DNA of 64,000 bases from an uncultured archaeon (GCA_964389465.1 CAYMDK010000001.1:86852-150851), one strand, 5' to 3'; counted from the first letter of the stretch, positions 8,853 to 59,884 are shown. The notes: generated by a model from the letters alone, not told the origin. Numbers and translations are program-made.

Positions 8853-8985
8853 CTTGGTTGAGTCCTTGTCTCAGCGGGCAGGATACCCACTGAAGGGTTA
8901 CTGTCATGCTACACCGTTGATATAAAGCGTTCGCCCGGACCGGAAACAGGCTAAGCGATATAGGCGGGGCAGGGCTGCACCGACG

Positions 8986-14659: not shown

Positions 14660-16974
14660 TGGAGCGCGCGGCGGTCATCGGCTCGGGCGTCATGGGCGCC
14701 GGCATCGCGGCACATCTGGCGAACGCCGGGGTCAGCGTGGAATTGCTCGACATTGTCCCGAAAGGCGCCAAGGACCGCAATGTGCTGGCGCGCGGCGCGA
14801 TTGCGCGGCTGCCCCGGACGAAACCGGCGCCGCTGATGCATGCGGATTTTGCCGAGCGCATCCGGCCCGGCAACCTGGAAGACCATCTCGAACGGGTCGC
14901 GGAAGCGGACTGGATTGTCGAAGTAGTTCTCGAAGATTTGGATATAAAGCAGAATGTGTTCAAGCAGCTCGAAAAAGTCCGCAAGGACGGCAGTATCATT
15001 AGTTCCAACACTTCAACCATTCCGCGCGCGCAACTCGTTGCCGGGATGGGGAATCGCTTCGAGCGCGATTTTCTGGTAACTCACTTCTTCAACCCGCCGC
15101 GCTACCTGCGACTGCTCGAAATCGTGCCGTCACCGACTATGGAGCCGGAGCGGCTTGCCGCCTTCCGGGACTTCACCGACCGGCGGCTCGGCAAGGGGGT
15201 CGTGGTTTGCAACGACACGCCGGGATTCATCGGTAACCGCATCGGCGTCTACTGGATGCAGTGCGCCATCAACGCCGCGGTCGAGATGGGGCTGAGCGTA
15301 GAGGAGGCGGACGCCGTAATGGGTCGCCCGATAGGCGTGCCGAAGACCGCGGTGTTCGGACTGCTCGACCTGGTGGGGCTGGATCTGGTGCCGCACATCG
15401 CCGAAAGCATGCTGGCGACGCTGCCCGCCGAGGACGATTACCGGCGCGTCGTCGCCGAAGCCGAAGCTAACGGCATCGCCGCCACCCTTGAGGAGATGAT
15501 TGCGGCCGGCTATACCGGCCGCAAGGGGAAGGGAGGCTTCTACCGGCTCAACCGCGACGGCGGGAAGAAAGTGAAGGAGGCGCGCAGCCTGAAGACGGGC
15601 GAATACGCGCCCGCCAGCCGCCGTGTTGCGCTCGAGTCGCCCAAGGCGGCGAAGCGGGGGCTGCGGGCGCTGGTTGAATATCCCGACCGCGGCGGCGAAT
15701 ACGCGTGGAAAGTGCTGTCGCAGACGCTCGCCTACACGGCGTCGCTGCTGCCCGAAATTGCCGCCGCGCCGGCCGACGTTGATGCGGCGATGCGGCTCGG
15801 CTACGGCTGGAAGCGCGGGCCGTTCGAAATGCTCGACGCGCTCGGCGTGGATTGGTTCTGTGAGCGGCTCGCCGCGGATGGCCTTGCGGTGCCGCCACTG
15901 CTGGCGCACGGCAAGCCGCTCTACGACGGCGATACGCAACTACTGGCCGACGGCAGCTACATCGCCGTCCCGCGTGACGACGACGTTCTGCGCGTGGCCG
16001 ACCTGCGCCGGGCGGGCGAGCCGCTGGCGCGCAACGCTTCGGCTTCGCTATGGGACGCGGGCGACGGAATCGTACTGCTCGAATTCCATAGTAAGATGAA
16101 CGCGATTGACCCGCTCGGGCTGGAGATGGTCGCCGAGGCGGTCGAAGTCGTGGAGGAGGGCGACTTCGTGGGTCTGGTGGTCGGCAACGATGGTGAACAT
16201 TTCTCGGCCGGCGCCAATATCGGGCTGGCGCTCTTCGTCGCCAACGTCGGCGCGTGGGACGAAATCGGAAAGATGATTAGCGGCGGGCAACTCGCGTTCA
16301 TGACGCTAAAGCACTCCAGCTTCCCGGTCGTCGGCGCGCCGAGCGGGCTCGCCATCGGTGGCGGCTGCGAGGTGCTGCTGGCGTGCGACGCGATTCAGGC
16401 GCACTCCGAGACCTACACCGGGCTGGTCGAGGTCGGCGTAGGGCTGGTCCCTGCGTGGGGCGGTTGCAAGGAGATGCTGCGTCGCTGGGCCGCGGCGGGA
16501 CCGCACGGGCCAATGGCGCCGGTAACGAAGATATTCGAGAACGTCGGCACCGCCAAGGTCGCAACGAGCGCGTTTGAAGCGCGCGACATGCAAATCCTGC
16601 GCGGCGGCGACGAAATCACGATGAACCGCGACCGCGTGCTGGCTGACGCCAAGGCGCGCTGCCTGAAAATGGTCGACGGCTACGAGCCACCCGAAATGGC
16701 AGCGCATCGCCTGCCGGGGGCGTCAGGCCGCGCGGGGCTCGAGATGGCGGTCGCCGACCTGCTCCGGGCGGGCAAGGCGACGCCGCACGACGAGGTCGTC
16801 ACGGGGCAGCTCGCCATCGTGCTGAGCGGCGGCGACACCGACCCCACCGAGGAGCTGGACGATTCAGATATCCTTGATTTGGAGCGCGAAGCGTTCATGA
16901 CGCTGGTGCGCCTGCCGCCAACGCTGGCGCGGATTGAGCACATGCTCACGACGGGGAAACCGCTGAGGAACTGA
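14659..16974 (+). CDS. Bifunctional 3-hydroxyacyl-CoA dehydrogenase (N-terminal, NAD-binding) / enoyl-CoA hydratase (C-terminal crotonase fold)
   Basis: GSGVMGAGIA Rossmann motif and 3HCDH core, then a crotonase-fold C-terminal half (GAPSGLAIGGGCEVLLACD). ATG at 14659 overlaps the thiolase stop (ATGA). Confidence 0.85.
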   Translation: MERAAVIGSGVMGAGIAAHLANAGVSVELLDIVPKGAKDRNVLARGAIARLPRTKPAPLMHADFAERIRPGNLEDHLERVAEADWIVEVVLEDLDIKQNVFKQLEKVRKDGSIISSNTSTIPRAQLVAGMGNRFERDFLVTHFFNPPRYLRLLEIVPSPTMEPERLAAFRDFTDRRLGKGVVVCNDTPGFIGNRIGVYWMQCAINAAVEMGLSVEEADAVMGRPIGVPKTAVFGLLDLVGLDLVPHIAESMLATLPAEDDYRRVVAEAEANGIAATLEEMIAAGYTGRKGKGGFYRLNRDGGKKVKEARSLKTGEYAPASRRVALESPKAAKRGLRALVEYPDRGGEYAWKVLSQTLAYTASLLPEIAAAPADVDAAMRLGYGWKRGPFEMLDALGVDWFCERLAADGLAVPPLLAHGKPLYDGDTQLLADGSYIAVPRDDDVLRVADLRRAGEPLARNASASLWDAGDGIVLLEFHSKMNAIDPLGLEMVAEAVEVVEEGDFVGLVVGNDGEHFSAGANIGLALFVANVGAWDEIGKMISGGQLAFMTLKHSSFPVVGAPSGLAIGGGCEVLLACDAIQAHSETYTGLVEVGVGLVPAWGGCKEMLRRWAAAGPHGPMAPVTKIFENVGTAKVATSAFEARDMQILRGGDEITMNRDRVLADAKARCLKMVDGYEPPEMAAHRLPGASGRAGLEMAVADLLRAGKATPHDEVVTGQLAIVLSGGDTDPTEELDDSDILDLEREAFMTLVRLPPTLARIEHMLTTGKPLRN

Positions 16975-16975
16975 A

Positions 16976-18778
16976 ATGAAATACCGCGTTCCAAAACGGG
17001 ATTTCGAGTTCGTGATGCGGGAGGTGATTCAGGTCGAGCAGCTGACTGAATACGAGGGGTACAAAGAGGCGACCTGGGAAATGGTGCAGATGATTATGGA
17101 CCAGGTGGCTGAAATCGCCGAGGATATCTGGGTCCCGAGCAACAAAATTGGCGACGAGGTCGGCGCCAAGTTCAAGGATGGCGAGGTGACCCTGCCACCC
17201 GAGTTCCACGAGGCAATCAACGCGATTCGCGATACTGGGCTGGTGACGCTCTTCGCGCACCCAGAATACGGCGGAATGGGGTTCCCGACCGCCTTCGAGG
17301 TGCTGGGCGACGAAGTGATGTGCGCAACCAACATGGCGCTGGCGACGATGACCGGGCTTACCAAGGGCGCCTACCGCTGCATCCATGAATATGGCGACGA
17401 AGAAATGAAGTCGCTATACCTGCCGAAGATGGTCAGCGGTGAGTGGTTCGGGACTATGTGCCTTACGGAAGCGCATTGCGGGACCGACCTGGGACTGCTG
17501 CGGACAAAGGCGAACCCCGACGGAGAGGGGAGCTACCGGCTCGACGGCGAGAAAATATTCATCACCGGCGGCGAGCACGACCTGACGCAGAACATCCTGC
17601 ACCTGGTGCTGGCGCGGCTGCCCGGTGCGCCGAAGGGCGTCAAGGGCATTTCGCTCTTCCTGGTGCCCAAATTCATCCCCAACGCCGACGGAACGCTGGG
17701 CGAGCGCAACTCCATCCGGGCGCTCTCGATTGAGGAAAAGATGGGGTGCAAAGGTTCTCCGACGTGCGTTATCGCGCTCGAAGATGCGCGGGGCTGGTTG
17801 ATTGGCGAGGAAAACCGCGGGCTGCGGGCAATGTTCGCGATGATGAACCACGAGCGGCTGGCGGTCGGCATGGAAGGGCTGGGAGTGGCTGAAATCGCCT
17901 ACCAGAACGGGCTGGCGTACGCGCTGGACCGGCTTCAGGGGCGCGACCTAGGAGGGGCCCGGTATCCGGAACAGGAAGCGGACCCGCTGATTGTGCATCC
18001 CGACATCCGGCGGATGCTGCTACGCGCCAAGTCGCTCATCGAGGGAATGCGCTGCCTGGCGGTCTGGACCGGGATGTCAATTGACCGCTCGCTGAAAGAC
18101 CCCGACGAAGCAGTACGCGAGGAGAACGGCGAGCTGGTCGAGCTGTTGACGCCGATTGTCAAGGCACTCTGCACCGACCTGGGGTGCGAAATCGCCAACG
18201 ACATGCTGCAAATTTACGGCGGCCACGGCTACATCCGTGAGCATGGTATGGAGCAGCTGGTGCGCGACCTGCGGATTGCCCCCATCTGGGAAGGCGCCAA
18301 CGGCATCCAGGCGCTCGACCTGGCGGGGCGCAAACTGCCGCGCGATATGGGGCGGCTGCTGCGCCGCTTCTTCCATCCTGCGCTGGAGTTCGTCGAGCAG
18401 CATCGTGACGACCCCGGGCTGAAGGAGTTCGTCGAGCCGTTTGCGAAAGGGCTGCGTGGACTTCAGAAGACCAGCATGTTCCTGGCCCAAAAGGGAATGG
18501 GAAACCCGCGCGAAATCGGCGCCGGCGCGACCGACTACCTGCGGCAGTTCGGGCTGGTGGCGCTGGGCTACATGTGGCTGAAGATGCTGAAGGTCGCCTT
18601 CGGGAAACACGAAAGCGACGAGTTCTACGAATACAAGCTCACGACGGGACGCTACTTCTTCGAGCGTGTCTTTCCGGAAACAATCTCGCGTGCGGTCGCC
18701 ATCGCATCCGGTGCTAAGACCATGATGGCGATGCCGGACGCCGGCTTTGCGGGCGACCACCGTTTCTCGGGCAACTAG
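16976..18778 (+). CDS. Acyl-CoA dehydrogenase (long form, ~600 aa)
   Basis: ACAD N-terminal, middle and C-terminal domain motifs (CLTEAHCGTDL ... IYGGHGY ... RIAPIWEGANGIQALD). Starts 2 nt after the upstream stop. Confidence 0.85.
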   Translation: MKYRVPKRDFEFVMREVIQVEQLTEYEGYKEATWEMVQMIMDQVAEIAEDIWVPSNKIGDEVGAKFKDGEVTLPPEFHEAINAIRDTGLVTLFAHPEYGGMGFPTAFEVLGDEVMCATNMALATMTGLTKGAYRCIHEYGDEEMKSLYLPKMVSGEWFGTMCLTEAHCGTDLGLLRTKANPDGEGSYRLDGEKIFITGGEHDLTQNILHLVLARLPGAPKGVKGISLFLVPKFIPNADGTLGERNSIRALSIEEKMGCKGSPTCVIALEDARGWLIGEENRGLRAMFAMMNHERLAVGMEGLGVAEIAYQNGLAYALDRLQGRDLGGARYPEQEADPLIVHPDIRRMLLRAKSLIEGMRCLAVWTGMSIDRSLKDPDEAVREENGELVELLTPIVKALCTDLGCEIANDMLQIYGGHGYIREHGMEQLVRDLRIAPIWEGANGIQALDLAGRKLPRDMGRLLRRFFHPALEFVEQHRDDPGLKEFVEPFAKGLRGLQKTSMFLAQKGMGNPREIGAGATDYLRQFGLVALGYMWLKMLKVAFGKHESDEFYEYKLTTGRYFFERVFPETISRAVAIASGAKTMMAMPDAGFAGDHRFSGN

Positions 18779-28733: not shown

Positions 28734-28765
28734 AGCAGGAAAGATAAGTCAGAACAGGAGCTGAC

Positions 28766-30334
28766 ATGCAGAAAATTAACAGGCGCCAGACATTCGTTGT
28801 ATTCACTGTAGTTCTTGTTCTTTCGATGACCGTTTACAGTAACGGTCATTTCCGGGACCTTTTCTCATATTATGAGCATGCTGGAGATAAAGCGTATGAC
28901 CTGAATGATGACGGATGGACTGTGGATTTAGATGCCTCTTTCGAGATGGTTGATAAATTCGATTTGATGCTGGAAAATATAGATGAGTATGAATACCCGG
29001 CGAATAGTGTAATTGTTGTCAACCAGGGGACCATCGTTCGGGAGAGATACTACAATGATTTCAGTTACAGTACGCAATTCAACACTTATTCGGTCACCAA
29101 GAGTTTCACTTCAGTATTGGTGGGAATCGCGATAGACCAGGGAATCATTGGCAGCGTTGACGATCCCGTTGTTAGTTATTTTCCGAACACGACCTTTGAT
29201 GAGAATTCTCCTGAAAAACAGAGCGTTACGATTAAACACATTTTGACCATGACGTCTGGATTTGACTATGGTGTAGACCCTACGTTTGCACCTCCAGTAG
29301 ATGGGTCAATGGCTATGCACGTCCTCAATAGCCCTGTAAATCGTGAACCAGGTACATCATGGGTCTACGACTCGCAAGCACCGTCTATACTCACCAGAAT
29401 TATTGAGATTCAATCAAATATGTCATTGATAGATTTTGCCAATGAATCCCTATTCGGCCCCCTGGGGATTCAGGAAGTATCATGGGGTACGGATGACTCG
29501 GGGCTGGCATACGGCGGCTTTGGGTTGTATCTAACCTCCAGGGAGATGGCGAAGTTTGGCCAATTATTCCTACAGGAAGGGATGTGGAATGGCAAACAGA
29601 TTATATCGAAGGAATGGGTTCAGGAATCAACATTGGACCAGATGCCGGCCAATGTCCAATTTGTTTATTCAGTAAGACCTTCAGGAGGGTATGGCTATCT
29701 GTGGTGGACCTATGACGGGTTTTACACTGCATCAGGCTTGCACGGGCAACGGATAATAGTCAATCCCGGTAACGAATACGTTGTGGTCTTCACTTCGCTT
29801 GACGTGACGCAAGAGGGGGCCGATAACCTTCATAAGTCCTTGCTTGAGGAGGATTTTGTAGGTTGGGAAAAGCCGATGACGGATTTTTACAAGAGGTCTG
29901 CGCCTTACCTGATTTTGCTTCTTCTGTTTTTCGCAACAATCAATTTAGCTCTTCTAAAGTACGGAATCAACCAAAGGATATCCTCTAAGGGCAAAGACCA
30001 GGACATTGTCCTGACCTCTTTGGGATTGTCGGCCTACCCTGTCTTTGTGGGTTTTCTGGCAACCCTTTCAATCGTATTCGTAGCGCTAGACCTCTTTTTT
30101 GCCGGTTCGAGAGGAATCTTGTTCCCAAAGTTCCAATGGCTAACGTGGATAATGCTGATTATGCTCACGGGTTCAATAGTTGTCTTGGACGGTGCGTGGT
30201 TGAAATATAGACATAGTGCAGATCTTGCAGGATTGTCAAAAATTATTGTTCCCAAGTCAATTTTCTTTGTAATATTGACCGTGGTTCTGTTCTTCAGTGT
30301 ATATCTGAGGATGGTTGCTGATTTTTCGGCTTAG
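28766..30334 (+). CDS. Serine hydrolase, beta-lactamase class C / S12 peptidase (D-aminopeptidase-like) family, with C-terminal multi-TM membrane domain
   Basis: S-x-x-K active-site motif SVTKSF with flanking beta-lactamase fold. The C-terminal ~170 aa contains four hydrophobic helices. AT-rich codon usage. Confidence 0.7.
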   Translation: MQKINRRQTFVVFTVVLVLSMTVYSNGHFRDLFSYYEHAGDKAYDLNDDGWTVDLDASFEMVDKFDLMLENIDEYEYPANSVIVVNQGTIVRERYYNDFSYSTQFNTYSVTKSFTSVLVGIAIDQGIIGSVDDPVVSYFPNTTFDENSPEKQSVTIKHILTMTSGFDYGVDPTFAPPVDGSMAMHVLNSPVNREPGTSWVYDSQAPSILTRIIEIQSNMSLIDFANESLFGPLGIQEVSWGTDDSGLAYGGFGLYLTSREMAKFGQLFLQEGMWNGKQIISKEWVQESTLDQMPANVQFVYSVRPSGGYGYLWWTYDGFYTASGLHGQRIIVNPGNEYVVVFTSLDVTQEGADNLHKSLLEEDFVGWEKPMTDFYKRSAPYLILLLLFFATINLALLKYGINQRISSKGKDQDIVLTSLGLSAYPVFVGFLATLSIVFVALDLFFAGSRGILFPKFQWLTWIMLIMLTGSIVVLDGAWLKYRHSADLAGLSKIIVPKSIFFVILTVVLFFSVYLRMVADFSA

Positions 30335-30412
30335 TAAACCCCCTTTTCGTTCCAGACAATACTTACTATTGTTTTTGTAAAACTTAAAAACAACTGTGGC
30401 CTGCGTTGGATA

Positions 30413-31114
30413 ATGACTCTGGAAGGTCTGATAGGCTCCTTGGAGGATTTGAGCGAATTCAATCTAGAAGGTGTCTATGAAGCTGTTTCAAGAACCGCCG
30501 TGGGATTCAAGGACCTTGAGAAATGGATAGATTACGACTATCCCGTCTCTGACTCATATGGTCGGAAAATGGTGCATGATGGTGGTTTTTTCGAAGTGAT
30601 GGTTATGTGCTGGAAACCCGGAGATTATAGTGCTATACACGATCATGGGGAAGCTGAGTTTGGTGTGGTCAAGGTTTTTGGAGATACCGAACACGCCGCA
30701 TTCAAAATAGTGAATCAGAAACTTATCACTCTCGGGCGTACTATCATTGAAGCAGGAACAACGCTGGAAGTGGCTCCAGCATTGATTCATCAAATGGGAA
30801 ATCCGGGAGATAGGAATTTCTTCAGTTTGCACATCTATGTGAATCAGGCCACTGAAGGTGGAATTACGAGAGATTCCAGAATTTATGATTATAGCCGAAA
30901 CGCGATATTACGTGTTGATGGAGGGGCTTTCTATCTCCTGCCAGAAAGCGAGATTAAAGCCAGAGAGCCTCTCCCAGAAGCTGATTCCAGCACCAGGCAA
31001 CGGGACCTGAAGGAAGCCGGAAAGCGCGCGAAAGCTATGAAATGCGGGCCGGAGTACAAACGAATCCTGAATGAGGCGCCTCCAACTCTGGTCGAACCTC
31101 CATTAATCCAGTAA
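30413..31114 (+). CDS. Cupin-fold cysteine dioxygenase type I-like protein
   Basis: Cupin core with HDH metal-binding motif (YSAIHDHGEAEFGVV) and a downstream His (LHIYV). AT-rich codon usage. Confidence 0.6.
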   Translation: MTLEGLIGSLEDLSEFNLEGVYEAVSRTAVGFKDLEKWIDYDYPVSDSYGRKMVHDGGFFEVMVMCWKPGDYSAIHDHGEAEFGVVKVFGDTEHAAFKIVNQKLITLGRTIIEAGTTLEVAPALIHQMGNPGDRNFFSLHIYVNQATEGGITRDSRIYDYSRNAILRVDGGAFYLLPESEIKAREPLPEADSSTRQRDLKEAGKRAKAMKCGPEYKRILNEAPPTLVEPPLIQ

Positions 31115-31217: not shown

Positions 31218-31303
31218 TGGCGCCAGGAGAGGGATTCGAACCCCCGTGGGGAGACCCCAGTGGTTTTCGAGACCACCGCCCTACCGGACTAGGCGATCCT
31301 GGC
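31218..31303 (-). tRNA. tRNA-Ser (anticodon CGA), class II with long variable arm, CCA encoded
   Basis: Reverse complement: acceptor GCCAGGA/TCCTGGC, 3-bp D stem, anticodon stem GTGGT/ACCAC with loop CTCGAAA, variable arm TGGGGTCTCCCCAC, T-arm GGGGGTTCGAATCCCTC. Confidence 0.8.
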
Positions 31304-31638: not shown

Positions 31639-33885
31639 GTGCGGGGGCGAATGTCCAGCGAGGAGCAGCTGCCGGAAACCGAATCGCCCGCCCCGGTCGA
31701 CCCCGAGGCGCAGGCGCCGCTGCCGGGGCATGAGCTGGGTGAGCGCCCGATTGCGTGGCGCTCGCGGCAGGAGGAAGTGCTGGTCAAGGTCAGCCGGCGC
31801 GAGAAGGATGAAATTGACTTCGTCATCGACGCATTCTGGATATTCGTCGCGCGTGTCCGCTCCGCCTCGCGGCCGCTGCTGGCGCTGGGGCTGCTGTTAA
31901 TCCTGCTCGGCGTCAGCCTCGCGGGCTGGCCGCAGGCTGCCCTCGGGCAGGACCGCAGCGGCTACTGGTATGTCACCGCAGTCGACCATGGCAGTCTGGC
32001 GCGCTACACCACCGACGGCGACTATCCCGACTTCGCACCCGGCGACACTTTCCTGCTGCAGGGCAACATCGAGTCCATCGAGTATTACGCCCCGCTCGAG
32101 GAGGCGAGCTGGCCGCAGCTGGTCCCGGCTCCGCAGGCGGCCGACGGGACACTGCTGGCGAACGGGTCGCTCGAATCACTCTTCGGCCAGTCCTCGAGTG
32201 CAGCGGCCAACTACTCGAGCGCACGGCTGGTGCGGCAGCAGTATTTCAGCAACCTTTCGGTCAGCGGATTCCTGTTCAACGAGGTCGATTTCGAGGATAT
32301 TGTCTTCGAGAACGTCGTCTTCGAGTCCGGCTTCTTTATCAACTGCGACTTCGAGCGCGTCGCGTTCCATAACGTCACGATTCGCGGTTCAGTGCTCTCA
32401 CACGTCGTGCTCTCTGAAGTCTTGTTACAGAACTCGGTCCTCGAAGAGGCGCGACTGGAGCATACCGCCGTGGACCAGATGGTGGTTCGCAGCACGGTCT
32501 GGGAAAACACCGTCAGTCTCCAGAGCAGCCTGCGCGGAATCAAGTTCGACCACGCGCAGCTGAATAACGGCAGCTTCCAGAAATCGCAGCTGGATGTAGT
32601 GCTGTTCCAGCAGACCCACGTCACCAATTTCACGCTGCTCAACACGCCGGTCACCAACGTCGTCGACGGCGATGACCTCGACTACACCTACATTGTCCTC
32701 CGCGGCACCACGGTCCGCGCGACGGGGAATCTGGAGCAACGGCTGCCGGTTGGCGCCTCAATCTACATGGACGTCACGGTCGTCGCTGAAGGTGGCGGGG
32801 CCGGGTCGGTAGCCAACTCGAGCTGGGTTGCCGGCAACGTGACAGGGGATGGCTTCACGACGCCTTTCGGCGAGCAGCCGGTCAACCTCAGCCGCGAGCT
32901 GCTGGTGGTTGCGCCCGAAGTGGTGCGGCCCACCTTCTGGTGGTCGGTTGGCTTCAACTCGTTCGTGCTGGCGGGCGCGATGCTGCTGGTCTACGCTGTT
33001 GGTGGCCATGCGGTAATCCTGGCGGTTACACGCTTCAGCTCGCCACTGCTCGCCACCATGGGAGGATTCCTGCTGCTTTTCCTTGCTATCCCCACCCGCG
33101 ACTTCCTGCTGGTTTCGCAGCTGATGCTGCTCTATTTCGTCCCACCGCTCGGCAAGGGGACCGTCATCCCGCTCGGGATTGCGGCCGGAATCAATCCGTG
33201 GGTGCTGGCGCTGGCGACCGCCTTCGTTGACATCATGGTCGGAGTTTTCCTGGCGTGGAACTTCGACCTTGCGCGCAAAATTCCCTTCGTCGGCGGCGGT
33301 ATCCGGCGAGTGCAGGCGAAGGGTAGCGAAATCATGGCGGCACAGCCGTGGATTGAGCGGCTGGCGTTCGCCGGCATTCTGCTCTTCGTGATGTTCCCGT
33401 TCCAGGGCTCCGGCTCGGTTGGCGGCACCCTGCTCGGCCGCTCGATGTCGATGACCCCTTACCGCATCCTCTCGGCCGTGGCGATTGGCGGCATCCTCGG
33501 GTCTTTCATAATCTCCGCCTCAATTGTCTTCGGCCTCGGCCTCGTCGGACAGATGGGGGCCTACGGTTTACTGATTGCACTGGTGGTGGCGCTGATTATC
33601 GTCACCCTCTGGTACACCTTCCGCCACTGGGACGAGCTGAGTCTCGACGAGTTCCAGGAAGTACTGGGGCTCCACCGCGAAGGCCTCATCGGCGCCCCGG
33701 TCGGCGCCGCGGCCGACCTGGCGGGCGCGGCGACCCTCGGTGTCTTTCGCGCCGTCGAGGGGACGGGGCAGGCAATCTCGAAGACCACCGCAACTGTGCT
33801 CGATACATTCCTGCCCGAGAGCGAGCGGAAGCAGCCGCCCGCCGACAAAACTAAGGGCGACGACGATGCGGAGGACGAGGAGTGA
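31639..33885 (+). CDS. Membrane protein with extracytoplasmic pentapeptide-repeat region and C-terminal polytopic domain, acidic tail
   Basis: About 25 consecutive pentapeptide-like repeats (FLFNEVDFEDIVFENVVFESGFFINCDFERVAFHNV...), then at least 8 predicted TM helices. C-terminal KTKGDDDAEDEE. Confidence 0.55.
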   Translation: MRGRMSSEEQLPETESPAPVDPEAQAPLPGHELGERPIAWRSRQEEVLVKVSRREKDEIDFVIDAFWIFVARVRSASRPLLALGLLLILLGVSLAGWPQAALGQDRSGYWYVTAVDHGSLARYTTDGDYPDFAPGDTFLLQGNIESIEYYAPLEEASWPQLVPAPQAADGTLLANGSLESLFGQSSSAAANYSSARLVRQQYFSNLSVSGFLFNEVDFEDIVFENVVFESGFFINCDFERVAFHNVTIRGSVLSHVVLSEVLLQNSVLEEARLEHTAVDQMVVRSTVWENTVSLQSSLRGIKFDHAQLNNGSFQKSQLDVVLFQQTHVTNFTLLNTPVTNVVDGDDLDYTYIVLRGTTVRATGNLEQRLPVGASIYMDVTVVAEGGGAGSVANSSWVAGNVTGDGFTTPFGEQPVNLSRELLVVAPEVVRPTFWWSVGFNSFVLAGAMLLVYAVGGHAVILAVTRFSSPLLATMGGFLLLFLAIPTRDFLLVSQLMLLYFVPPLGKGTVIPLGIAAGINPWVLALATAFVDIMVGVFLAWNFDLARKIPFVGGGIRRVQAKGSEIMAAQPWIERLAFAGILLFVMFPFQGSGSVGGTLLGRSMSMTPYRILSAVAIGGILGSFIISASIVFGLGLVGQMGAYGLLIALVVALIIVTLWYTFRHWDELSLDEFQEVLGLHREGLIGAPVGAAADLAGAATLGVFRAVEGTGQAISKTTATVLDTFLPESERKQPPADKTKGDDDAEDEE

Positions 33886-34832
33886 CGCACGCGCTGGTCA
33901 CCGGCGGCGCCGGCTTCATCGGCTCGCACCTGGTCGACGCACTGGTCGCGCGGGGCGACCGCGTCAGCGTGCTCGACAACCTTTCGTCGGGGAGCCTCGA
34001 CTTCCTCACCGGCGTGCGCGACTCCATCGAGTTCCACGAGCTGGACCTGCTTGACGAGGATTTCGACGCGCTGCTCGACGGAGTGGACATCGTCTGGCAC
34101 CTCTCGGCCAACCCCGAAGTGCGCACCGGCATCGACGCGCCGGAAGTCATGTTCCGGCAGAACGTCGACGCGACGCGTTGCGTGCTGGCGGCGATGGCGC
34201 GCTGTAGCGTGCGCGACATCGTTTTCACCTCGACCTCGACCGTCTATGGCGAGGCGAGCGTTGTGCCGACCCCCGAGGATTACGCGCCACTGGCACCCAT
34301 CTCGGCCTACGGCCAGAGTAAGCTCGAGGCGGAGCGGCTCATCGAGCGCTTCTGCGAGGAGGAGAGCGGGCGCGCCGTCTCGTTCCGCTTCGCCAACTGC
34401 GTCGGCCCGCGCAGCAACCACGGCGTCACCTTCGATTTCTTCCACAAGCTGCGTGCCGATTCCGCGGCGCTGGAAATCCTCGGCGACGGCCAGCAGTTCA
34501 AGTCCTACTTCCACGTCGCCGACTGCATTTCGGGAATGCTCGCCGTCGCGCCCGCCGAAGCGTGCCCCGACGGCGGCTTCGCCGCGCTCAACGTCGGCTC
34601 GTTGGACGGCATCGACGTCGTCATGGTCGCCGACGCGGTCTGCGAGGCGCTCGGCCTCGACAGGGTCGAGTACAGCTTCACCGGCGGCGTCGACGGCGGG
34701 CGCGGCTGGGAGGGCGACGTGAAGCGGATGCTGCTGGCGGTCGAGCGGCTGCGCGAATTCGGCTGGGCGCCGCAGTTCGGCAGCCGCGCTGCCATCCTCG
34801 ACACGGCGCGCTGGCTCGACGAAAACTATTAA
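33882..34832 (+). CDS. NAD-dependent epimerase/dehydratase (extended SDR, UDP-sugar 4-epimerase-like)
   Basis: VTGGAGFIGSHLV Rossmann motif and the extended-SDR Y-x3-K (YGQSKLEAE). GTG start overlaps the upstream stop. Confidence 0.8.
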   Translation: MTHALVTGGAGFIGSHLVDALVARGDRVSVLDNLSSGSLDFLTGVRDSIEFHELDLLDEDFDALLDGVDIVWHLSANPEVRTGIDAPEVMFRQNVDATRCVLAAMARCSVRDIVFTSTSTVYGEASVVPTPEDYAPLAPISAYGQSKLEAERLIERFCEEESGRAVSFRFANCVGPRSNHGVTFDFFHKLRADSAALEILGDGQQFKSYFHVADCISGMLAVAPAEACPDGGFAALNVGSLDGIDVVMVADAVCEALGLDRVEYSFTGGVDGGRGWEGDVKRMLLAVERLREFGWAPQFGSRAAILDTARWLDENY

Positions 34833-34857
34833 GGTGAAAGCCCGCAGCCGGGCCGGC

Positions 34858-34935
34858 GCTCCCGTGGTGTAGTCCGGCCCATCATCTCGGCCTCTCGAGC
34901 CGAACACCCGGGTTCGAATCCCGGCGGGAGCACCA
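34858..34935 (+). tRNA. tRNA-Glu (anticodon CTC), CCA encoded
   Basis: Acceptor GCTCCCG/CGGGAGC, anticodon stem TCGGC/GCCGA with loop CTCTCGA, T-arm CCGGGTTCGAATCCCGG, discriminator A plus CCA. Confidence 0.8.
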
Positions 34936-34946
34936 TTTGGCTCGGG

Positions 34947-35684
34947 CTAGTCCGTTCTTGAAAGCCTATCAGAAATAAAGTCAATTACCTTTTGCAGATT
35001 TTTTTCGTTATCAAAATCCTCGACCTCAGCCCCGACACGGACAGACTCAGTCAGTAGTGGCAGACACCGTGTCAGTTCGTCAACTATTGTGACATGGGCA
35101 GTTTGAGCTGTTCTTGAAAGAGGGTTTAGATCAATAGTAATCACCTGCTTTCCCATATCCACCAGAGCTCGACAACGGTCTCCATCCTCAAGTGGAACAA
35201 GAACGACATCAGCCGAACCTATTCCGTCTGAACAGCATTTTGCCCTTTCAGACGTTAATCCAGGGATATTAGCATCATCGTTCTCCCCAAGTGCCTTTAC
35301 CCCGGCATCACCCATCATCCTAGTCAAGGCTGCAACCCGTTCCGGAGTTCGGTGGAACAGGTTTATTTCGACTTTGGCGCCACTTACCTCGGAAAGATGT
35401 GCAATTTCTCTGGCTGCCAGCGCGACAACATTCCCGTTAACCGAAATAACTGGATTGGTGGCACCAACCATCATGGATGCGGCGGCCCTGATTGCATCCA
35501 TCGCGGGCGGACAGGTTTGTTCACCTAACAGGTAATCGAACGCCTCGCCTCTCCCATGGGCAATCAACCCCTGCCTGGCGACGGCATCAGCAGCTTCTAC
35601 CAACTTCTCACGGGCCATGAGGGATTTGTATCTCGGGTGGTCTTCCGGGGGCAGGGTCACGTGACTAGTCCCACTCAAACTCAT
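34947..35684 (-). CDS. 4-phosphopantoate--beta-alanine ligase (archaeal phosphopantothenate synthetase, COG1701)
   Basis: Archaeal PPS signature region [41 protein letters not shown]. Start taken at MSLSGTSHV (35684), 17 nt after the upstream gene's stop. Track start TTG at 35741. Confidence 0.65.
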
Positions 35685-38613
35685 CCTCGTCGTCGCCGCC
35701 ACTTCCTCGCATTCTCCTGAGCAAGACAGCGATTCCTCCAACCGCAGCTATTGCAGGTATTGAATAGAACCATGGATTCAAGCCCTCCTCCACTTTTACT
35801 TCAGGAGCTGAGGATACAGAAACCATAACGCCTTGTGACGTTTCACCAGCAGAGACGGTGATGGTATGGTCGCCGCTTGTCGCTATCCAGTCGAATTGCG
35901 AGAAGCCGTCAGCACCTGCAACCAAATCAACCAAGGCCGTTGAGGCTACCTCGCCATCCACACTCCATGTCAGTTCTGCAATTCCATCAAGGCCCCCTGC
36001 GTTACTTACTATCACGAAGAAAGGCACGTTGTCACCCTCACTCAGATCTGGGGGAATAACTTGAATCGAGGCCAGTATCACTGAGAATTCTGGATGCACG
36101 ATAGACACGCTTACATTTCTCCATGTAGTGGCCCGCCCATCACTGGCGCTTATGGCGAGGTAGTAATCACCTTCATCCAATGCACTGGTGTCCCAGAACA
36201 AGCTACCGGATGGTGCCAAACCTGAAGAAATCGTGGTAAAACCCGTGTTCGAGGAATGCCTGAAAAGAATGTCTATTTCGAGGAGATCGCCGTCCGCATC
36301 CGCCACTGACCATTGCACATCCACGCCATCGTCAATAAGGCCGAAGGGAGCTGGTGAATAGATGAAAATTTCAGGGGCGTTGTTCGGTTGTGTATGATTG
36401 ATTTCAAGAGTATAATCACTACAGTCTTCACTCCCCAAATTACCGTCACTGACCGTTCCGCATACAAACCATTCACCGTCACCAATCTGGGAAGTGTCCC
36501 ATTGGTATTCTCCGTTGTTTGCAAGGCCCGTTTCTATGGTAACAGCGTCATCCAGATTCTCCGTCATGGAGTAGTAGAGAAGGCCAATCACCAATTCGTC
36601 ACTATCTGGGTCGGTGGCCTGCCATCGAATTACGTAGCTATCATCGGCGATGTCGCCCTGTGAACTAGGTGTATTGATGGTGATTTCTGGTGAATCGTTG
36701 TGCTCTATCCGGAGGGTCTCAGAAGTATAGTCAATTTTCTCTTGTGAGGTGGAGTCGGTGGCCACGCCCATCAAGTAGTAATCGCCTTCCGCTATTCCAG
36801 AGGTATCCCATTCATATTCTCCCGAATTTTCGAGATTAGCCGCAATCAGTTGCTTCTCATTGGGTTGTGTGTCTGTGTCATAATACAGGTCGATTGCGAC
36901 TTGATCGCCGTCAGGGTCAGAGGCCACCCACGTGATGGAATAGCTTCCATCAGCGATGGCATCCCCCGGCTCTCCCACTTCCATATCTGGTGGATAATTA
37001 GATGGTGAAATAATCGCAAAACTATTGTCACTGATATCGTCAACTGAAGTGCCTAGCTCATCAGTCAACGTTACTTTCAGAAAACTATCAGCAGAATTCT
37101 CGAAAGGCACTTCCCATTGGAAGGTACCTGTATCAGGCAAACCTTCAGCGATGGTTGTCCAATCTCCATCCGGGCCGTCCGTTGAATATTCCAGTTTTAC
37201 GCTACGGGACCCTGTGGTCGACGGAATTTCCGAGAGCCAGTGGATGAACCTGATAGACCCGCCACGGAAGGTTTCCATGCCGTCAGGATAGTCCATGTCC
37301 ACGCCTAGTGACGACACGGCCGTGCTTTCACGCCAGACTTTCACACTACCTGGGTAGCCTGCCTGGTCCGTTCCAAAACCAGCAATGATATCACGGTGTC
37401 CGTTGTGATCGAAATCCCCTACCTCCATGCGGTGCCCCTGTGCATTTCCCTGCAACGTGTTCTGGGACTTTACCCATCCACCGGTTTCGGTTGCAAGATA
37501 GGTTTCAACGATACCACTAGGAGTGAGGCCCACAATATCATCGTACTTATCCTGATTCATATCAGCTAATTTTATTGTCCGATAGGCTTGGTTCGGCAAT
37601 CCTGCAGAATTATCAGTCCAGCCACCCTCTCCGTCCCCAGAGAAGGCGTAGACATGACTATCATCGTAATCGACCGTGCATAGTGCTAGATCCACGAATC
37701 CGTCATTGTTGAAATCTCCCCAGTCGAGCGAGAACGGACTTTCATCTGAACCTGATTCAACTGGCAGGCCTGCGCTGGAGTCTGTCCAGCCTCCGTTTCC
37801 GTCACCAAGGTAGACCCAGACACCGTCACGAAGATTAGCTATAAGATCCAGGAACCCGTCTCGGTTGATATCAACGAAATAGCCCTGCAAAGTGCTGGCT
37901 CTGCCCATGATTATCCCGTCGTCCTGTTGAGTCCAATTACCGTCACCCGAGTTTGCAAAAGGAGTAAGGACCATATCCATCTGACCCCCTATCAAAACAT
38001 CCAGACGCCCGTCAGCATTATAGTCTCCAACATCAATAGACCAGGCGTCCTGACTGTTACAGCCCTCACACTCTTTCTCTACCACGTTCTCGTCCCAATT
38101 TCCTCCAGAGCCTCGATAGAAGGCACTGACGTTATATTTGCCATGGCTACCAGCCACCACATCCATGTTACCGTCATTGTCAACGTCGCCAAAATCAAAT
38201 CCGCCGTAAGAGTGATGGTTAATCACTTCAGTTCCAAACGTGGATGAAACATTCGACCACGTATTACCATCCCATTGCATTACGTGGAGAGAACGGTCCC
38301 CCTGTCCCTTGCGCGGGCCCAAAAAGAAAGCCTCATCAGTCCCATCTTCGTCAATATCATGAAGCCGGACCTTGGAAACCCAGAGACCTTGTGTGGGTAG
38401 ACCATTGCTAACATCATTGTACTCCGGGGTACCTTGTGCTTCAGCATTATGGGGCAGGTAGTAAAGCCCGGAAAATATCATCGATAAAATCAGGAGAAGG
38501 CTGAGAGTGGGAGAGTGATTCTGTGACCATAGAATTCTACCATGGGTGTTTGAAATATTTAAGCCCCGTTGGAAATATCTAGTCCTGTGCACGCGAGTGG
38601 ACGCGGCAAACAC
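35665..38613 (-). CDS. Cell-surface protein: FG-GAP/VCBS beta-propeller repeats + three Ig-like repeat domains + C-terminal TM anchor and acidic tail
   Basis: FG-GAP repeats ([68 protein letters not shown]). Three ~100-aa repeats of the form ([22 protein letters not shown]...GEYEWDTS...GDYYL). C-terminus [37 protein letters not shown]. The exact start is uncertain (38613 or the internal ATG at MIFSG). Confidence 0.7.
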
Positions 38614-38639
38614 CTATTTAGCCGCGACCTTCGCGCTGC

Positions 38640-39056
38640 ATGGGCGAAGAGACGCGATTACGACACGTCGCCGTGGCGGTCAAATCCATCGACACGGCGC
38701 TGCCGCTGTGGGAGGCGCTCGGCCTGCGGCTGCGCCATACCGAGGGCGTGCCCAGCGAAGGGGTGCGCACCGCGCACCTGGCGGCCGGTGGTGCCGAGGT
38801 GGAACTGCTCGAGCCGCTCGCGGACGATTCGCCGGTCGGCCGCTTCCTGGCGAAGCAGGGGCCGGGGCTGCACCACGTCGCGCTCGAGGTCCCTGACTTG
38901 TCGGCGGCGCTGGACCGTTGCAGCGCCGCCGGGCTGGAGCCGCTGGGCGGCGGTGCGCGCGACGGCACCGAGGGGACGCGCGTCGCGTTCTTCCACCCGC
39001 GCGACACCGGTGGGGTGCTGCTCGAACTGGTCGAGCCCGCCCCCAAACCGGTTTAA
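38640..39056 (+). CDS. mce: Methylmalonyl-CoA epimerase (VOC/glyoxalase family)
   Basis: Two VOC half-sites (LRHVAVAVKSID ... GLHHVALEVPDL). 138 aa, typical MCEE size. Fits the propionyl-CoA/beta-oxidation context. Confidence 0.75.
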   Translation: MGEETRLRHVAVAVKSIDTALPLWEALGLRLRHTEGVPSEGVRTAHLAAGGAEVELLEPLADDSPVGRFLAKQGPGLHHVALEVPDLSAALDRCSAAGLEPLGGGARDGTEGTRVAFFHPRDTGGVLLELVEPAPKPV

Positions 39057-43847: not shown

Positions 43848-44861
43848 ATGCGCAGCATCCCGCTGCTGCTCACGCTAATCCTGCTCGCCCCGTCGCTCTC
43901 CGGCTGTCTGGGCGGCGAGCCCGACGAGCAGGAGCCGTGCGACGAGCAGCAATACTGGCGCCATATTTCGGAGGCTGCGCCCTACCCCGGGCTGGGCTGC
44001 GATGGCGGCCCCACCAAGACACTCGCAATCACGTTCTTCGTCTACCGGGACAACGCCAACGCCAGCTACGTCTCCAACGAGAGCTCCCTCCAGGCAGGGC
44101 TCGAGCTGGTTAACAGCGTCTTCAACTCGCATGGAATCAATTTCGCGCTGGGGGAAATCATCTATGTGGATGTCGCCTTCCCCGACGTCGAGGACGAGCA
44201 GGAGGGGGAGACCGGGACCGTCGGGAACGGCAGCGACGAGGCGGGGGGCGACTATGGCGATGGCGTCCCGGTTTCCGCCCTCGGCACGGAGTTCGAACAG
44301 CACTACAACACCAGCAACGTAAACATCGTCCTGATAACCGACGGCTGGGGCGCCTACAGCATGTATCCCTGGCACGACCGCACCTATTACGTTACCTTCG
44401 TGCGGGCGTCCACCTTCGAGACCAGCTACATCCCGTCGCACGAGCTGGGCCACTTCACCGGGCTCTACCACACCCACCAGTACCACGAATACCCGAATTC
44501 GGATTCGGCCCTCGACCGGTCGGTCGCCTGGACTGCCGACTGGGTGGTCCCGGAGGAGCAGTGCTACCGCACCGGCGACTTCGTCTGCGGCACACCCTAC
44601 GACTGCTACCAGTGGTGTGAAGAGGATATCGGCTGCGACGCCAGCGACCTCTATCAGGGCGAGAAGCCGGGGCAGGCGGAGAGCGAGTACCCCGACTGCA
44701 CCCCCGAGCAGCACTCGCCGTCGCTCGAGAACCTGATGAGCCGCTACGGCGACCGCAGCGTCCTGACCGGGGATCAGGGTGCCCGGGCTAGGTACTTCGT
44801 GCAATACATGCTCGATACCGAGCGCATGGGCAACCAGCTGGTCGCGGTCGACGACGCGTAG
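43848..44861 (+). CDS. Secreted lipoprotein zinc metalloprotease (metzincin, HExxHxxGxxH)
   Basis: Signal peptide plus lipobox-like LSGC. Zinc-binding consensus HELGHFTGLYHTH. Multiple Cys pairs. Confidence 0.7.
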   Translation: MRSIPLLLTLILLAPSLSGCLGGEPDEQEPCDEQQYWRHISEAAPYPGLGCDGGPTKTLAITFFVYRDNANASYVSNESSLQAGLELVNSVFNSHGINFALGEIIYVDVAFPDVEDEQEGETGTVGNGSDEAGGDYGDGVPVSALGTEFEQHYNTSNVNIVLITDGWGAYSMYPWHDRTYYVTFVRASTFETSYIPSHELGHFTGLYHTHQYHEYPNSDSALDRSVAWTADWVVPEEQCYRTGDFVCGTPYDCYQWCEEDIGCDASDLYQGEKPGQAESEYPDCTPEQHSPSLENLMSRYGDRSVLTGDQGARARYFVQYMLDTERMGNQLVAVDDA

Positions 44862-58380: not shown

Positions 58381-59463
58381 TCAGATACCAGCTTCAGCCA
58401 ACTTCTCCGGCAAGTATGTGTCGGTCACGAAGTCAAGGCCATACTTGGCCAGCGCCTGCTGCTCAGCCTTGAGTCCCAGTTCCAGTTGGAGTTCTATCTC
58501 CGAGCTCCAGTAGTCATTGAGAAAACGGGGGTCGCTACGCATTGACTTCAGGGCCTGCCGGTCGCGCTCGGTGAGCTCGTCGTGCGGGAGCTCGTAATTC
58601 GAGATATCTGACGGCGTCACCCCCAAGTAGCGCGCTGTGGGGGTCGCGAGCAAGTGTGAAATGTGGGCTGTCTTGATGGCACCATATGCAATCGAGCCGT
58701 AAATGCGGTACGACCAGGGGTCGGCATCGGTAAAGATCAGGAGCGGCAAGCTTGTCTCATCACTGAGCCGTTGCAGGAATCTGCGTGTCGAGCGAGCTGG
58801 CTGTCCCTTGATGTGGACCAGGATTGCACCGTGGCTTTCGTCGAAGCCGTTCTCAACCAGCCGGTCGAACATTCCTCCCGTCTCGATGGCGATTATGCAG
58901 CGCGCGTTACCCACGTTGTTGAAAGTAATCTTCTCTGGTTCAACATTGTAGGGAATCGCGTAGCCGGTATCCCCGACATCGTCGCGGCAGTTTATGCGCA
59001 TCGGCTTGCCCTTGCGGTTAATCTCAGTCAATGTCAGGTCGCCCAGTACCTTGGCTCCATCCTCCTCGGGCCGGATCTTGAAATCCTCCCGCTGGAAATG
59101 GGTCACGATTTCGAGGTCCTCAATGAGTTTATTGGATTCGTCCTGGGTATGGAACTTGCCCAGGTCCCAGCCCTCGGAAATGTAGTAGAGCTCCCTCAGT
59201 GTCGATGATTTTTGCTGGCCAACCATGTCGCGAATGAAGTCGAGTAAATAGGTCGTGCGCAGGAGCATGTACGCCCCATCTAATTTCTTGGCCGTGCGGG
59301 TCGTCCTCGATTTCCCGTACTTCCAGACCTGCTGCTGCTGGTCGAAGATTATGTTATTCTTGCTGCGGGTGGGAAGGGTCATCTCCGGGATGTTTCCCTG
59401 GTTAAGCTGCTTGTGAATCTGGCCGGCAATCTGTTCCAGTTGCCCGATCGCGGATTGTGGCAT
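58381..59463 (-). CDS. top6A: DNA topoisomerase VI subunit A (Top6A, Spo11 homolog)
   Basis: Spo11/TopoVI-A CAP domain with catalytic Tyr region (LRELYYISEG) and toprim domain (DxD: IFTDADPWSYRI). 360 aa. Confidence 0.9.
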   Translation of the reverse strand: MPQSAIGQLEQIAGQIHKQLNQGNIPEMTLPTRSKNNIIFDQQQQVWKYGKSRTTRTAKKLDGAYMLLRTTYLLDFIRDMVGQQKSSTLRELYYISEGWDLGKFHTQDESNKLIEDLEIVTHFQREDFKIRPEEDGAKVLGDLTLTEINRKGKPMRINCRDDVGDTGYAIPYNVEPEKITFNNVGNARCIIAIETGGMFDRLVENGFDESHGAILVHIKGQPARSTRRFLQRLSDETSLPLLIFTDADPWSYRIYGSIAYGAIKTAHISHLLATPTARYLGVTPSDISNYELPHDELTERDRQALKSMRSDPRFLNDYWSSEIELQLELGLKAEQQALAKYGLDFVTDTYLPEKLAEAGI

Positions 59464-59884
59464 ATTGCCCTATTGTGTAGGTGTTTTTGAGATATTGGGG
59501 TGTTGGTGGTGGCGGGGAAGTTGACATATCACCCACTGCCGCAGATAGTAGCTGCCGTATTAGAGAGAAAAGAAGGTGGGGGGAGAGGACGTATCCCAAA
59601 TACCAAAAGGGGCGATTCTACTGTTGGAAGGGGGACGGGCGGTGTACCATTCGACAATGGAAACAATCTCAAAGAAACTATGGACATCATAAAAAGCACC
59701 GCGGGGAACTCGGGCGAGACCCCTTGATTTCGTCTGGAAAATTTTTTATCTACTTTATATATTTATCGAGAAATGTATATTATAACAAACCGTCGAATTA
59801 GAAAATCAAATTTCCAGAGGAAACAAAGGGGTTGCACAGTATACACCATGTGCATTTCTCGTTTAGACGGGTGCCTCTATTTTT

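Follow-up and report, generated by a model that had tools for sequence, protein, structure and literature searches.

We analyzed a 64-kb stretch of DNA (hereafter the window; overall GC content 0.62) from an uncultured archaeon (GCA_964389465.1 CAYMDK010000001.1:86852-150851). At positions 34936-38605 it contains a segment of ~3.7 kb with a GC content of 0.502, which carries a gene for phosphopantothenate synthetase (PPS) and a gene for a large FG-GAP/Ig-like surface protein. The segment lies between a tRNA-Glu gene and mcee, a glyoxalase-family gene whose product is methylmalonyl-CoA-epimerase-like. Its features and borders are the following (ORF, open reading frame; GC3, GC content at third codon positions).

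33882-34832, plus strand: NAD-dependent epimerase/dehydratase, left flank (Pfam Epimerase, E = 3.8e-44; GC3 0.89)
34858-34935, plus strand: tRNA-Glu, anticodon CUC, intact, left island boundary (ARAGORN)
34936-34946, no strand: 11-nt spacer TTTGGCTCGGG from the tRNA CCA end to the PPS stop codon (boundary alignments)
34947-35660, minus strand: PPS (4-phosphopantoate--beta-alanine ligase), 237 aa, GTG start at 35660 (PF02006)
35665-38613, minus strand: FG-GAP/Ig-like surface protein, longest ORF 982 aa from GTG 38613 (ORF and Pfam)
35716-35775, minus strand: predicted C-terminal transmembrane anchor, followed by a short RR and acidic tail, DDEDEFEWD (hydropathy)
35812-37281, minus strand: predicted stalk of about five Ig-like (Kre9_KNH / CARDB-like) beta-sandwich domains (Kre9_KNH, model, Foldseek)
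37282-38424, minus strand: predicted seven-bladed FG-GAP beta-propeller, residues about 20-400 in 938-aa numbering (motifs, Pfam, model strand pattern)
37810-38420, minus strand: mosaic 5' segment of the FG-GAP gene (sliding-window identity of 95-98% to the related loci L094/L098)
38553-38563, minus strand: TATA-like box CTTAAATATTT, carried with the cassette (alignment)
38564-38605, no strand: ~40-nt linker with an alternative in-frame GTG at 38592 (alignments)
38606-39056, plus strand: right boundary, mcee promoter GCAAACACCTATTTAGCC... and mcee (Glyoxalase_4, E = 6e-24)

The original prediction had described a low-GC island that starts at the 3' end of tRNA-Glu and ends at the divergent mcee promoter, and the GC steps, together with an empty site and a younger age of the segment (see below), bear this out. 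Across the 3' end of tRNA-Glu, GC content drops from 0.690 (preceding 500 nt) to 0.484 (next 500 nt), and at the other edge it climbs from 0.484 over the final 500 nt (up to 38605) to 0.714 in the following 500 nt, which contain mcee (38640-39056; GC3 about 0.75). Compositional statistics agree with these steps at both edges: relative to the 36 other genes of the window (GC3 mean 0.821, standard deviation 0.048, minimum 0.727), GC3 is 0.448 in PPS (z = -7.7) and 0.499 in the FG-GAP gene (z = -6.6). The same structure was recovered in independent assemblies. A metagenome-assembled genome (MAG) from NCBI (L008, GCA_001875445.1) is 99.985% identical to the window, Logan contigs from two different runs (L009 and L010) cover both junctions at 100% identity, and two further contigs (L012, SRR15461853; L013, ERR12944161) cover the right junction at 100% identity. 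Because the junctions are seen in five assemblies, the structure is no one-off misassembly.

No integrase or recombinase gene was found among the genes from TGT (26988) to IF-2 (49816), each of which was assigned by Pfam or synteny. A repeat search of positions 34700-38800 (seed 8) gave short chance-level or intragenic repeats and no tRNA-derived or terminal direct repeat (att), and boundary alignments revealed no repeat of the tRNA 3' end at the far boundary. Repeat search and gene assignment thus agree with the earlier statement that neither a flanking repeat nor an integrase was found.

PPS matches PF02006 (PPS_PS) over its full length (E = 1.5e-64, 217 bits; cutoff 26.4) and aligns with the Thermococcus kodakarensis PPS structures 4mb0 and 3wdk with E about 1e-65 over residues 13-243. 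The start (V/M) is conserved in relatives, and an N-terminal motif and the domain in all relatives that resemble Marine Group III (MGIII). By homology, this gene is an archaeal PPS, whose product would condense 4-phosphopantoate and beta-alanine to 4'-phosphopantothenate on the way to CoA.

The FG-GAP gene has alternative starts at GTG 38592 and ATG 38481 (938 aa), such that the 982 aa given in the original prediction correspond to the longest ORF among plausible starts of 938-982 aa. A good signal peptide requires one of the upstream GTG codons (38592 or 38613), since ATG 38481 leaves a 15-aa leader only. Pfam matches comprise FG-GAP_3 (E = 2e-35, six stretches), one FG-GAP match, and the Ig-like Kre9_KNH (E = 2.2e-17), and these matches together with that to PF02006 uphold the predicted gene content of the island. 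The protein is acidic (D+E 16.6%, K+R 4.2%), and its AlphaFold model is all-beta with a mean pLDDT of 82.9. Seven DxDxDG-type, Ca-binding-like motifs spaced about 52 aa apart mark the propeller, with invariant D/G columns in 36 homologs at 42-47, 99-107, 153-161, 204-212, 256-264, 307-315, and 356-364. Just two 19-mers exceed a Kyte-Doolittle value of 1.6: one is the core of the signal peptide (aa 35-54 in the long ORF), and the other spans aa 947-966; a model helix at 914-923 matches the C-terminal anchor. The best reading is that of a predicted type-I membrane-anchored surface protein with signal peptide, propeller, Ig stalk, anchor, and tail, most likely an exposed, Ca-dependent adhesin or ligand-binding protein, to judge from motifs and model. 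It resembles integrin-alpha-like FG-GAP/VCBS propeller proteins in its seven repeats, DxDxDG-type motifs, Ig-like stalk, single C-terminal anchor, and short cytoplasmic tail. A Foldseek search of the PDB with the whole chain only (the propeller was not queried alone) returned multi-Ig/MG-domain proteins with TM-scores of at most 0.2, and no specific sequence or fold match to integrin alpha was obtained in this whole-chain search, which generic Ig-array proteins dominate.

The two genes are co-oriented and 4 nt apart, with tcac separating the FG-GAP stop codon (TAG, 35667-35665) from the PPS start GTG at 35660. The original prediction had treated PPS as a housekeeping gene that happens to sit next to an adhesin; the adjacency holds, but PPS is no mere neighbor, as the genes form one operon-like pair that moved together.

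To place the segment in context, we compared it with related loci (labelled with L numbers). The flanking OPT, a 141-aa protein (p141), three KaiC-like ATPases (KaiC1-3), EamA, and RidA, as well as gene order, identify Marine Group III / Poseidoniia as the nearest non-identical relatives, and the host appears to be a high-GC (about 65%) deep-water archaeon from an MGIII-like branch of Poseidoniia. PPS of ordinary Marine Group II is only about 50% identical. High-GC relatives at the species level (the B clade) have flanks of about 89% nucleotide identity and comprise L014/L103, L015/L109, L104, L105, L107, L108, and L117. A sister lineage (lineage E; L112-L114 and L116) has a GC content of about 0.57, GC3 of 0.65-0.71, and an OPT with 91% amino acid identity, and the flanks of L099-L101 are E-like. 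Core proteins of mid-GC (0.46; L094, L098, L016) and low-GC (0.36-0.42; L001-L006, L017-L035, L097) relatives are 74-83% identical to those of the window.

We surveyed the slot between tRNA-Glu and mcee in about 25 loci, using the epimerase as an anchor in JGI metagenomes and adding the loci identified earlier. The epimerase has 84-92% amino acid identity across L102-L117, and tRNA-Glu is found at the identical place in L014, L015, L099-L101, L103-L108, and L112-L117. At least seven states of the slot were observed. It is empty in L112, L113, and L114, where the tRNA CCA is followed by a 23-nt spacer, TGCACTTTTGCCGGTTAGCTGCA, and the mcee promoter GCAAAC...TAT(G/T)TAGCC. It holds a high-GC serA-serB-serC operon in L115 (4866-8307), PPS with a full-length FG-GAP gene in the window species only, and PPS with an FG-GAP stub in L014/L103 (84-aa ORF), L015/L109 (309 aa), and L108 (last six codons only). 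Full FG-GAP without PPS is present in L104, L107, L116, and L099-L101, and an FG-GAP stub without PPS in L105 and L117 (335 aa). Lastly, two unrelated secreted or membrane proteins (SHOCT-like and cupredoxin-like) occupy the slot in L025, a low-GC contig from a single amplified genome. No integrase, transposase, or other mobile-element gene was detected in these about 25 loci. The survey supports the view that the slot is a hot spot that accepts a wide range of contents, and the host-like composition of serABC in L115 indicates that this hot spot also takes housekeeping genes of native composition. Synteny and low GC are shared only within the close high-GC clade, where presence varies, which identifies the segment as an insertion rather than a low-GC segment conserved across the whole clade.

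Relative to the empty site, the insert of the window extends from 34936 to about 38605. Empty-site homology picks up again at the GCAAAC of the mcee promoter, and the 11-nt spacer TTTGGCTCGGG may be what is left of the sequence that once separated the tRNA from mcee (in the empty site, TGCACTTTTGCCGGTTAG...). The TATA-like box CTTAAATATTT, a putative promoter element by its position and sequence, marks the point from which the window is homologous to the native region between SBF and FG-GAP in L094, L098, and L097. The ~40-nt linker at 38564-38605 occurs in cassette-bearing high-GC genomes only and is found neither at the empty site nor in the native context.

That native context was identified in lower-GC relatives. 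In L094 and L098 (GC 0.46), the gene order is mcee, methyltransferase, GT, OPT, p141, KaiC1-3, LysE, SBF, FG-GAP(+), PPS(+), Far-17a, and in L097 (GC 0.42) it is FG-GAP, PPS, EamA(-). The pair has GC3 of 0.30-0.45 at these loci and its neighbors 0.39-0.54; FG-GAP and PPS are 43 nt apart in L094 and L098, with a T7 run in the spacer, and the L097 spacer is similar. No tRNA-Glu lies near the native pair on the contigs seen, and other low-GC genomes encode SBF-PPS without FG-GAP. The native order and host-like composition indicate that FG-GAP followed by PPS is a chromosomal pair of lower-GC relatives. Since homology spans the interval from the TATA-like box at 38553-38563 to the last PPS codons, the piece that moved is essentially a promoter and two genes.

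Synonymous divergence (dS, Nei-Gojobori) and identity in 200-nt windows were used to evaluate the relative age of the cassette. Between the window and L014/L015, PPS has dS values of 0.10 and 0.14 and the FG-GAP fragment one of 0.15, compared with 0.19-0.63 in 14-16 flanking genes. Against L099, dS is 0.195 for FG-GAP, 0.62 for the epimerase, and 1.2 for a pentapeptide protein. Low GC3 alone does not depress dS, because the low-GC genes of a neighboring island (beta-lactamase-like and CDO-like; island 1, described below) have flank-like dS of 0.33-0.44 against L015 and thereby serve as an internal control. Among B-clade genomes, the cassette is 93-97% identical and the flanks 80-92%, and the steps in identity are abrupt and fall exactly at the tRNA and the mcee promoter. 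The cassette is thus younger than its flanks in every within-clade comparison.

The FG-GAP gene is also mosaic. Relative to L094, its first ~600 nt are 95-98% identical, its middle 85-91%, and its 3' end 62-76%, whereas core genes of the window lineage and the L094/L098 lineage share about 67-68% nucleotide identity. Since the 5' segment lies within window sequence verified by five assemblies, recent exchange with the mid-GC lineage is directly visible.

The nearest PPS homologs were considered as donors and rejected: apart from the same-cassette contigs L007, L014, and L015 (97% amino acid identity), the best are 73-81% identical and no closer than core proteins. Raw PPS identity therefore pointed to no donor and distance ratios were used. 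Window-type PPS is 77.5-78.4% identical to mid-GC PPS, and mid-GC to low-GC PPS 75-77%; for OPT, KaiC1, KaiC3, and p141, mid- and low-GC sequences are 84-94% identical to each other and the window 74-83% to either. The window-to-mid PPS distance is thus about half of that predicted for vertical descent. Substitutions on the stem of window-type PPS (30 AT>GC versus 4 GC>AT) fit partial amelioration or an intermediate-GC donor. Collectively, these comparisons support a lower-GC member of the same archaeal group, and no distant organism, as the probable donor.

Taken together, these observations suggest, with a probability that we place at about 0.72, that 34936-38605 is a two-gene operon acquired horizontally from a lower-GC relative, which would constitute an integrase-free flexible island at a tRNA-adjacent hot spot that is exchanged between species and is eroding. 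Under this reading, a fragment extending from the FG-GAP promoter to the last PPS codons would have entered through illegitimate recombination no more than about 15 nt from the 3' end of the tRNA, without an integrase or att site, and the cassette may then have spread among species of the high-GC clade by recombination via the conserved tRNA and mcee-promoter edge. PPS would have moved as a passenger because it appears to depend on the FG-GAP promoter.

States of the slot in relatives provide intermediates of decay. The FG-GAP stubs of L014, L015, and L117 are in-frame deletions that join DxDxDG-coding repeats, or a repeat to the acidic tail, and retain the 5' region and reading frame. In L108, nearly the whole FG-GAP gene is gone and its upstream region is kept right before PPS. 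PPS loss has one shared junction in L099, L100, L101, L104, L107, and L116, which falls between the GG(A/G)A(C/A)TAG sequences at the 3' ends of FG-GAP and PPS. The erosion of FG-GAP would thus proceed by in-frame deletions from one DxDxDG-coding repeat to another, with the promoter and PPS left in place, and that of PPS by deletion between the GG(A/G)A(C/A)TAG repeats ending both genes. From these patterns we infer that PPS is transcribed from the FG-GAP promoter, so that only promoter-preserving deletions would survive where PPS is kept.

Several observations weigh against this interpretation. We did not find the lineage that donated the window-type cassette, whose 3' half and PPS are only 62-80% identical to any sampled lineage; the case for the older part of the cassette therefore draws on composition, dS, and distance ratios. 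Singletons in window-type PPS (25 GC>AT versus 15 AT>GC) lack the AT>GC excess of the stem, and ongoing amelioration is not supported. There is no gradient of lowered divergence in the flanks near the cassette (mcee dS 0.45-0.54), and thus spread by long-arm homologous recombination is not supported and very short arms or another mechanism would be needed. The MGIII-like naming of the host draws on names attached to the records of relatives. Lastly, misassembly at the conserved 5' FG-GAP segment could have produced L096 and L099/L100 as reciprocal chimeras. L096 contains an L094-type cassette (99% identity) inside a high-GC flank, and its contig ends within PPS; the left flank of L099/L100 is L094-type, and both L096 and L099/L100 switch genome type at the 5' segment.

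L096 was considered as proof of recent transfer and downgraded, given the contig end in PPS and the expectation of reciprocal misassembly products, and L101 (2.5x coverage) may likewise be chimeric. L096 and L099-L101 consequently carry no conclusion here except the count of PPS-less E-like contigs, which L116 backs independently. The 5' ~600 nt of FG-GAP are 95-100% identical in the window, L094, and L097-L101, among lineages that are otherwise 67% identical, and this segment would be a hot spot of recombination or else give rise to chimeric metagenome contigs systematically.

Flexible genomic islands of marine prokaryote pangenomes, which may be additive or replacement islands, often lie beside tRNA genes and often encode cell-surface structures. 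The segment resembles them in its fixed slot between core genes (one a tRNA) with different or no cargo, its surface protein and atypical composition, and cargo that is more similar between lineages than are the flanks. It differs in that its cargo is a single operon copied from the chromosome of a lower-GC relative, with a cofactor-biosynthesis gene as passenger, in a host that is an uncultured MGIII-like archaeon, and with no mobility gene.

A second class of islands has to be weighed for the same locus. The tRNA-targeting integrative elements of archaea and bacteria are tyrosine-recombinase islands, proviruses, and integrated plasmids, and the segment could be the remnant of such a provirus or integrated plasmid that lost its integrase, att sites, and most genes and left its cargo behind. 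The position directly 3' of a tRNA gene, the foreign composition, the variable presence, the empty site in L112-L114, several unrelated cargoes in one slot among relatives, and a second low-GC island that abuts tRNA-Ser 3.6 kb away are all as expected of such elements. We nevertheless consider this origin unlikely. The segment has no integrase, att duplication, or element genes, the window region and the about 25 related loci yielded no mobile-element gene, and no terminal repeat is present. In addition, the tRNA is complete and followed by what appears to be the original spacer, the alternative cargo serABC (L115) has host-like high GC, and the cargo of the window has its limits precisely at a promoter and a stop codon and equals a chromosomal pair of relatives. 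The island behaves like known flexible islands and hot spots, and unlike integrase-mediated tRNA islands.

It is improbable that the pair is native and vertically inherited, having been moved within the chromosome by rearrangement (e.g., two nested inversions with breakpoints at the tRNA), with low GC arising for local reasons. Such a history is compatible with identities to lower-GC lineages of 73-80% for PPS and 69-78% for FG-GAP, which are like those of OPT (77-79%) and KaiC (75-83%), and a local rearrangement could move PPS since in lower-GC lineages it lies a few kb past the same OPT-KaiC cluster; the window also has no PPS at the ancestral KaiC3-EamA position. Yet vertical descent leaves unexplained GC3 of 0.45-0.50 in a genome of 0.82±0.05, interspecies dS 3-4 times below that of the flanks, and the empty slot of the sister lineage, which also has no PPS at KaiC3-EamA. 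Nor does it account for the 95-98% match that the 5' end of FG-GAP has in a lineage whose core genes are 67% identical, and the PPS distance ratios are about half of the core-gene prediction.

That a lower-GC fragment was joined to a high-GC contig at the conserved tRNA during assembly of the window is hardly credible: tRNA genes are classic chimera points, lower-GC relatives with a homologous pair co-occur (L094 and L117 both derive from metagenome Ga0208879), and L096, L099, and L100 look like possible chimeras, but four runs besides that of the window (two with contigs spanning both junctions) and the NCBI MAG reproduce the structure, the same architecture occurs at species-level divergence in L014/L103, L015, L107, and L108 from other oceans and samples, and the right junction is away from any conserved repeat.

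With lateral acquisition as the preferred reading, the distribution of PPS itself becomes of interest. In most archaea, PS and PanK are replaced by PoK and PPS; Thermoplasmatales lack these two enzymes and may rely on a route of bacterial type instead (PMC6650551). PPS of the window is like TK1686-family PPS (PF02006) in its full-length match and its homology to the solved T. kodakarensis enzyme, and unlike typical archaeal PPS in that the window-type gene lies within a laterally exchanged cassette and varies in presence among close relatives. Such variable presence is atypical of an enzyme whose reaction has been described as a core step in the synthesis of CoA by archaea. Many close relatives have no PPS in the tRNA-Glu/mcee slot, and the ancestral PPS site (KaiC3-EamA) has no PPS in the B clade and lineage E, with KaiC3 directly abutting EamA in L113, L114, and L108. 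The original prediction had tied PPS to nearby beta-oxidation genes. Such a link may exist, as the window encodes a thiolase (13523-14659) and an acyl-CoA dehydrogenase (16967-18778) 16-21 kb from the island, but PPS at the island locus is missing from several close relatives.

A single PPS match was found within the 64-kb window, and a scan of species-representative genomes identified one PPS locus each in L014 and L015. No high-GC MGIII-type PPS was present among the 80 best loci or 120 best proteins, and none of 120 homologs was classed as a native high-GC PPS by a GARP/FYMINK amino-acid proxy, which is a weak proxy. One candidate for a high-GC PPS, P0071/L182, was rejected as L094-type. 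No pantoate kinase was detected in the subset of window ORFs scanned against Pfam. Either a divergent second PPS copy would be encoded elsewhere in the genome, or PPS would be dispensable or accessory in the clade. Tentatively, and with considerable doubt, PPS may be a laterally traded accessory gene in the high-GC deep-water clade, with the LysE-SBF-PPS block lost in the ancestor of the clade and its sister and PPS regained by some members only as the passenger of an adhesin operon.

SBF (bile-acid/Na+ symporter family) and LysE regularly precede PPS in lower-GC relatives (L094 8366-13607; L001, L025). The BASS-family transporter PanS imports pantothenate precursors in Salmonella, and by analogy the SBF-PPS adjacency might reflect precursor uptake.

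Other loci of the window are also variable or atypical. A first low-GC island (island 1; 28748-31114) lies beside tRNA-Ser(CGA) (31218-31303) and encodes a beta-lactamase-family protein (528 aa) and a CDO_I-like protein (258 aa) with GC3 of 0.49 and 0.44, respectively. Island 1 is full in L015, L105, L107, L108, and L117, reduced to a stub of 75-133 aa in L014/L103 and L114, and missing from L104 and L115. The beta-lactamase-like protein of island 1 shares 94-95% amino acid identity with those of lineage-E L113 and L116 but only 84-85% with those of closer relatives, and so this island also appears to have been laterally exchanged.

A 207-aa high-GC PF04199 cyclase gene, flanked by a ~25-nt repeat of the epimerase 3' end, is located between the epimerase and tRNA-Glu in all other B-clade contigs (L014 10832-11455; L102-L111, L117) and is absent from the window (34833-34857), L115, and lineage E. 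This difference could represent a deletion in the window species, or an insertion and duplication in the others. Between KaiC3 and EamA, the window encodes a 337-aa secreted-looking protein (43848-44861; weak Reprolysin_5 match) that is present in L014 and L015 and absent in L108, L117, L113, and L114. The KaiC3-EamA junction thus varies in content as well, and several lower-GC relatives have PPS there. A third atypical patch (59885-62436; GC3 0.57-0.58, z about -5) encodes a class-II aminoacyl-tRNA synthetase (HGTP_anticodon, tRNA-synt_2b) and a four-CBS-domain protein and adjoins the TopoVI-A gene (58381-59469), which precedes the LysE-SBF-PPS block in low-GC relatives. Lastly, a 2356-aa minus-strand ORF (1800-8870; GC 0.58, GC3 0.76) with a weak cupredoxin-like match near residue 1800 probably encodes another large surface protein.

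Literature searches returned no description of this locus, for which the landing site, empty site, native source context, and decay intermediates are all documented here. The results reveal gene flow between uncultured planktonic archaeal lineages that are about 20 percentage points apart in GC content, and suggest that a cofactor-biosynthesis gene can travel with a surface-protein gene through operon linkage. When metagenomes with these archaea are assembled, the conserved 600-nt adhesin segment is likely to give rise to chimeric contigs. The presence or absence of PPS may be a strain-level trait, which matters for metabolic reconstruction from MAGs. If PPS is indeed an accessory gene in this clade, genomes with an empty slot or with FG-GAP only would make 4'-phosphopantothenate otherwise or need salvaged precursors, and these archaea would exhibit population-level polymorphism in CoA-precursor autonomy.

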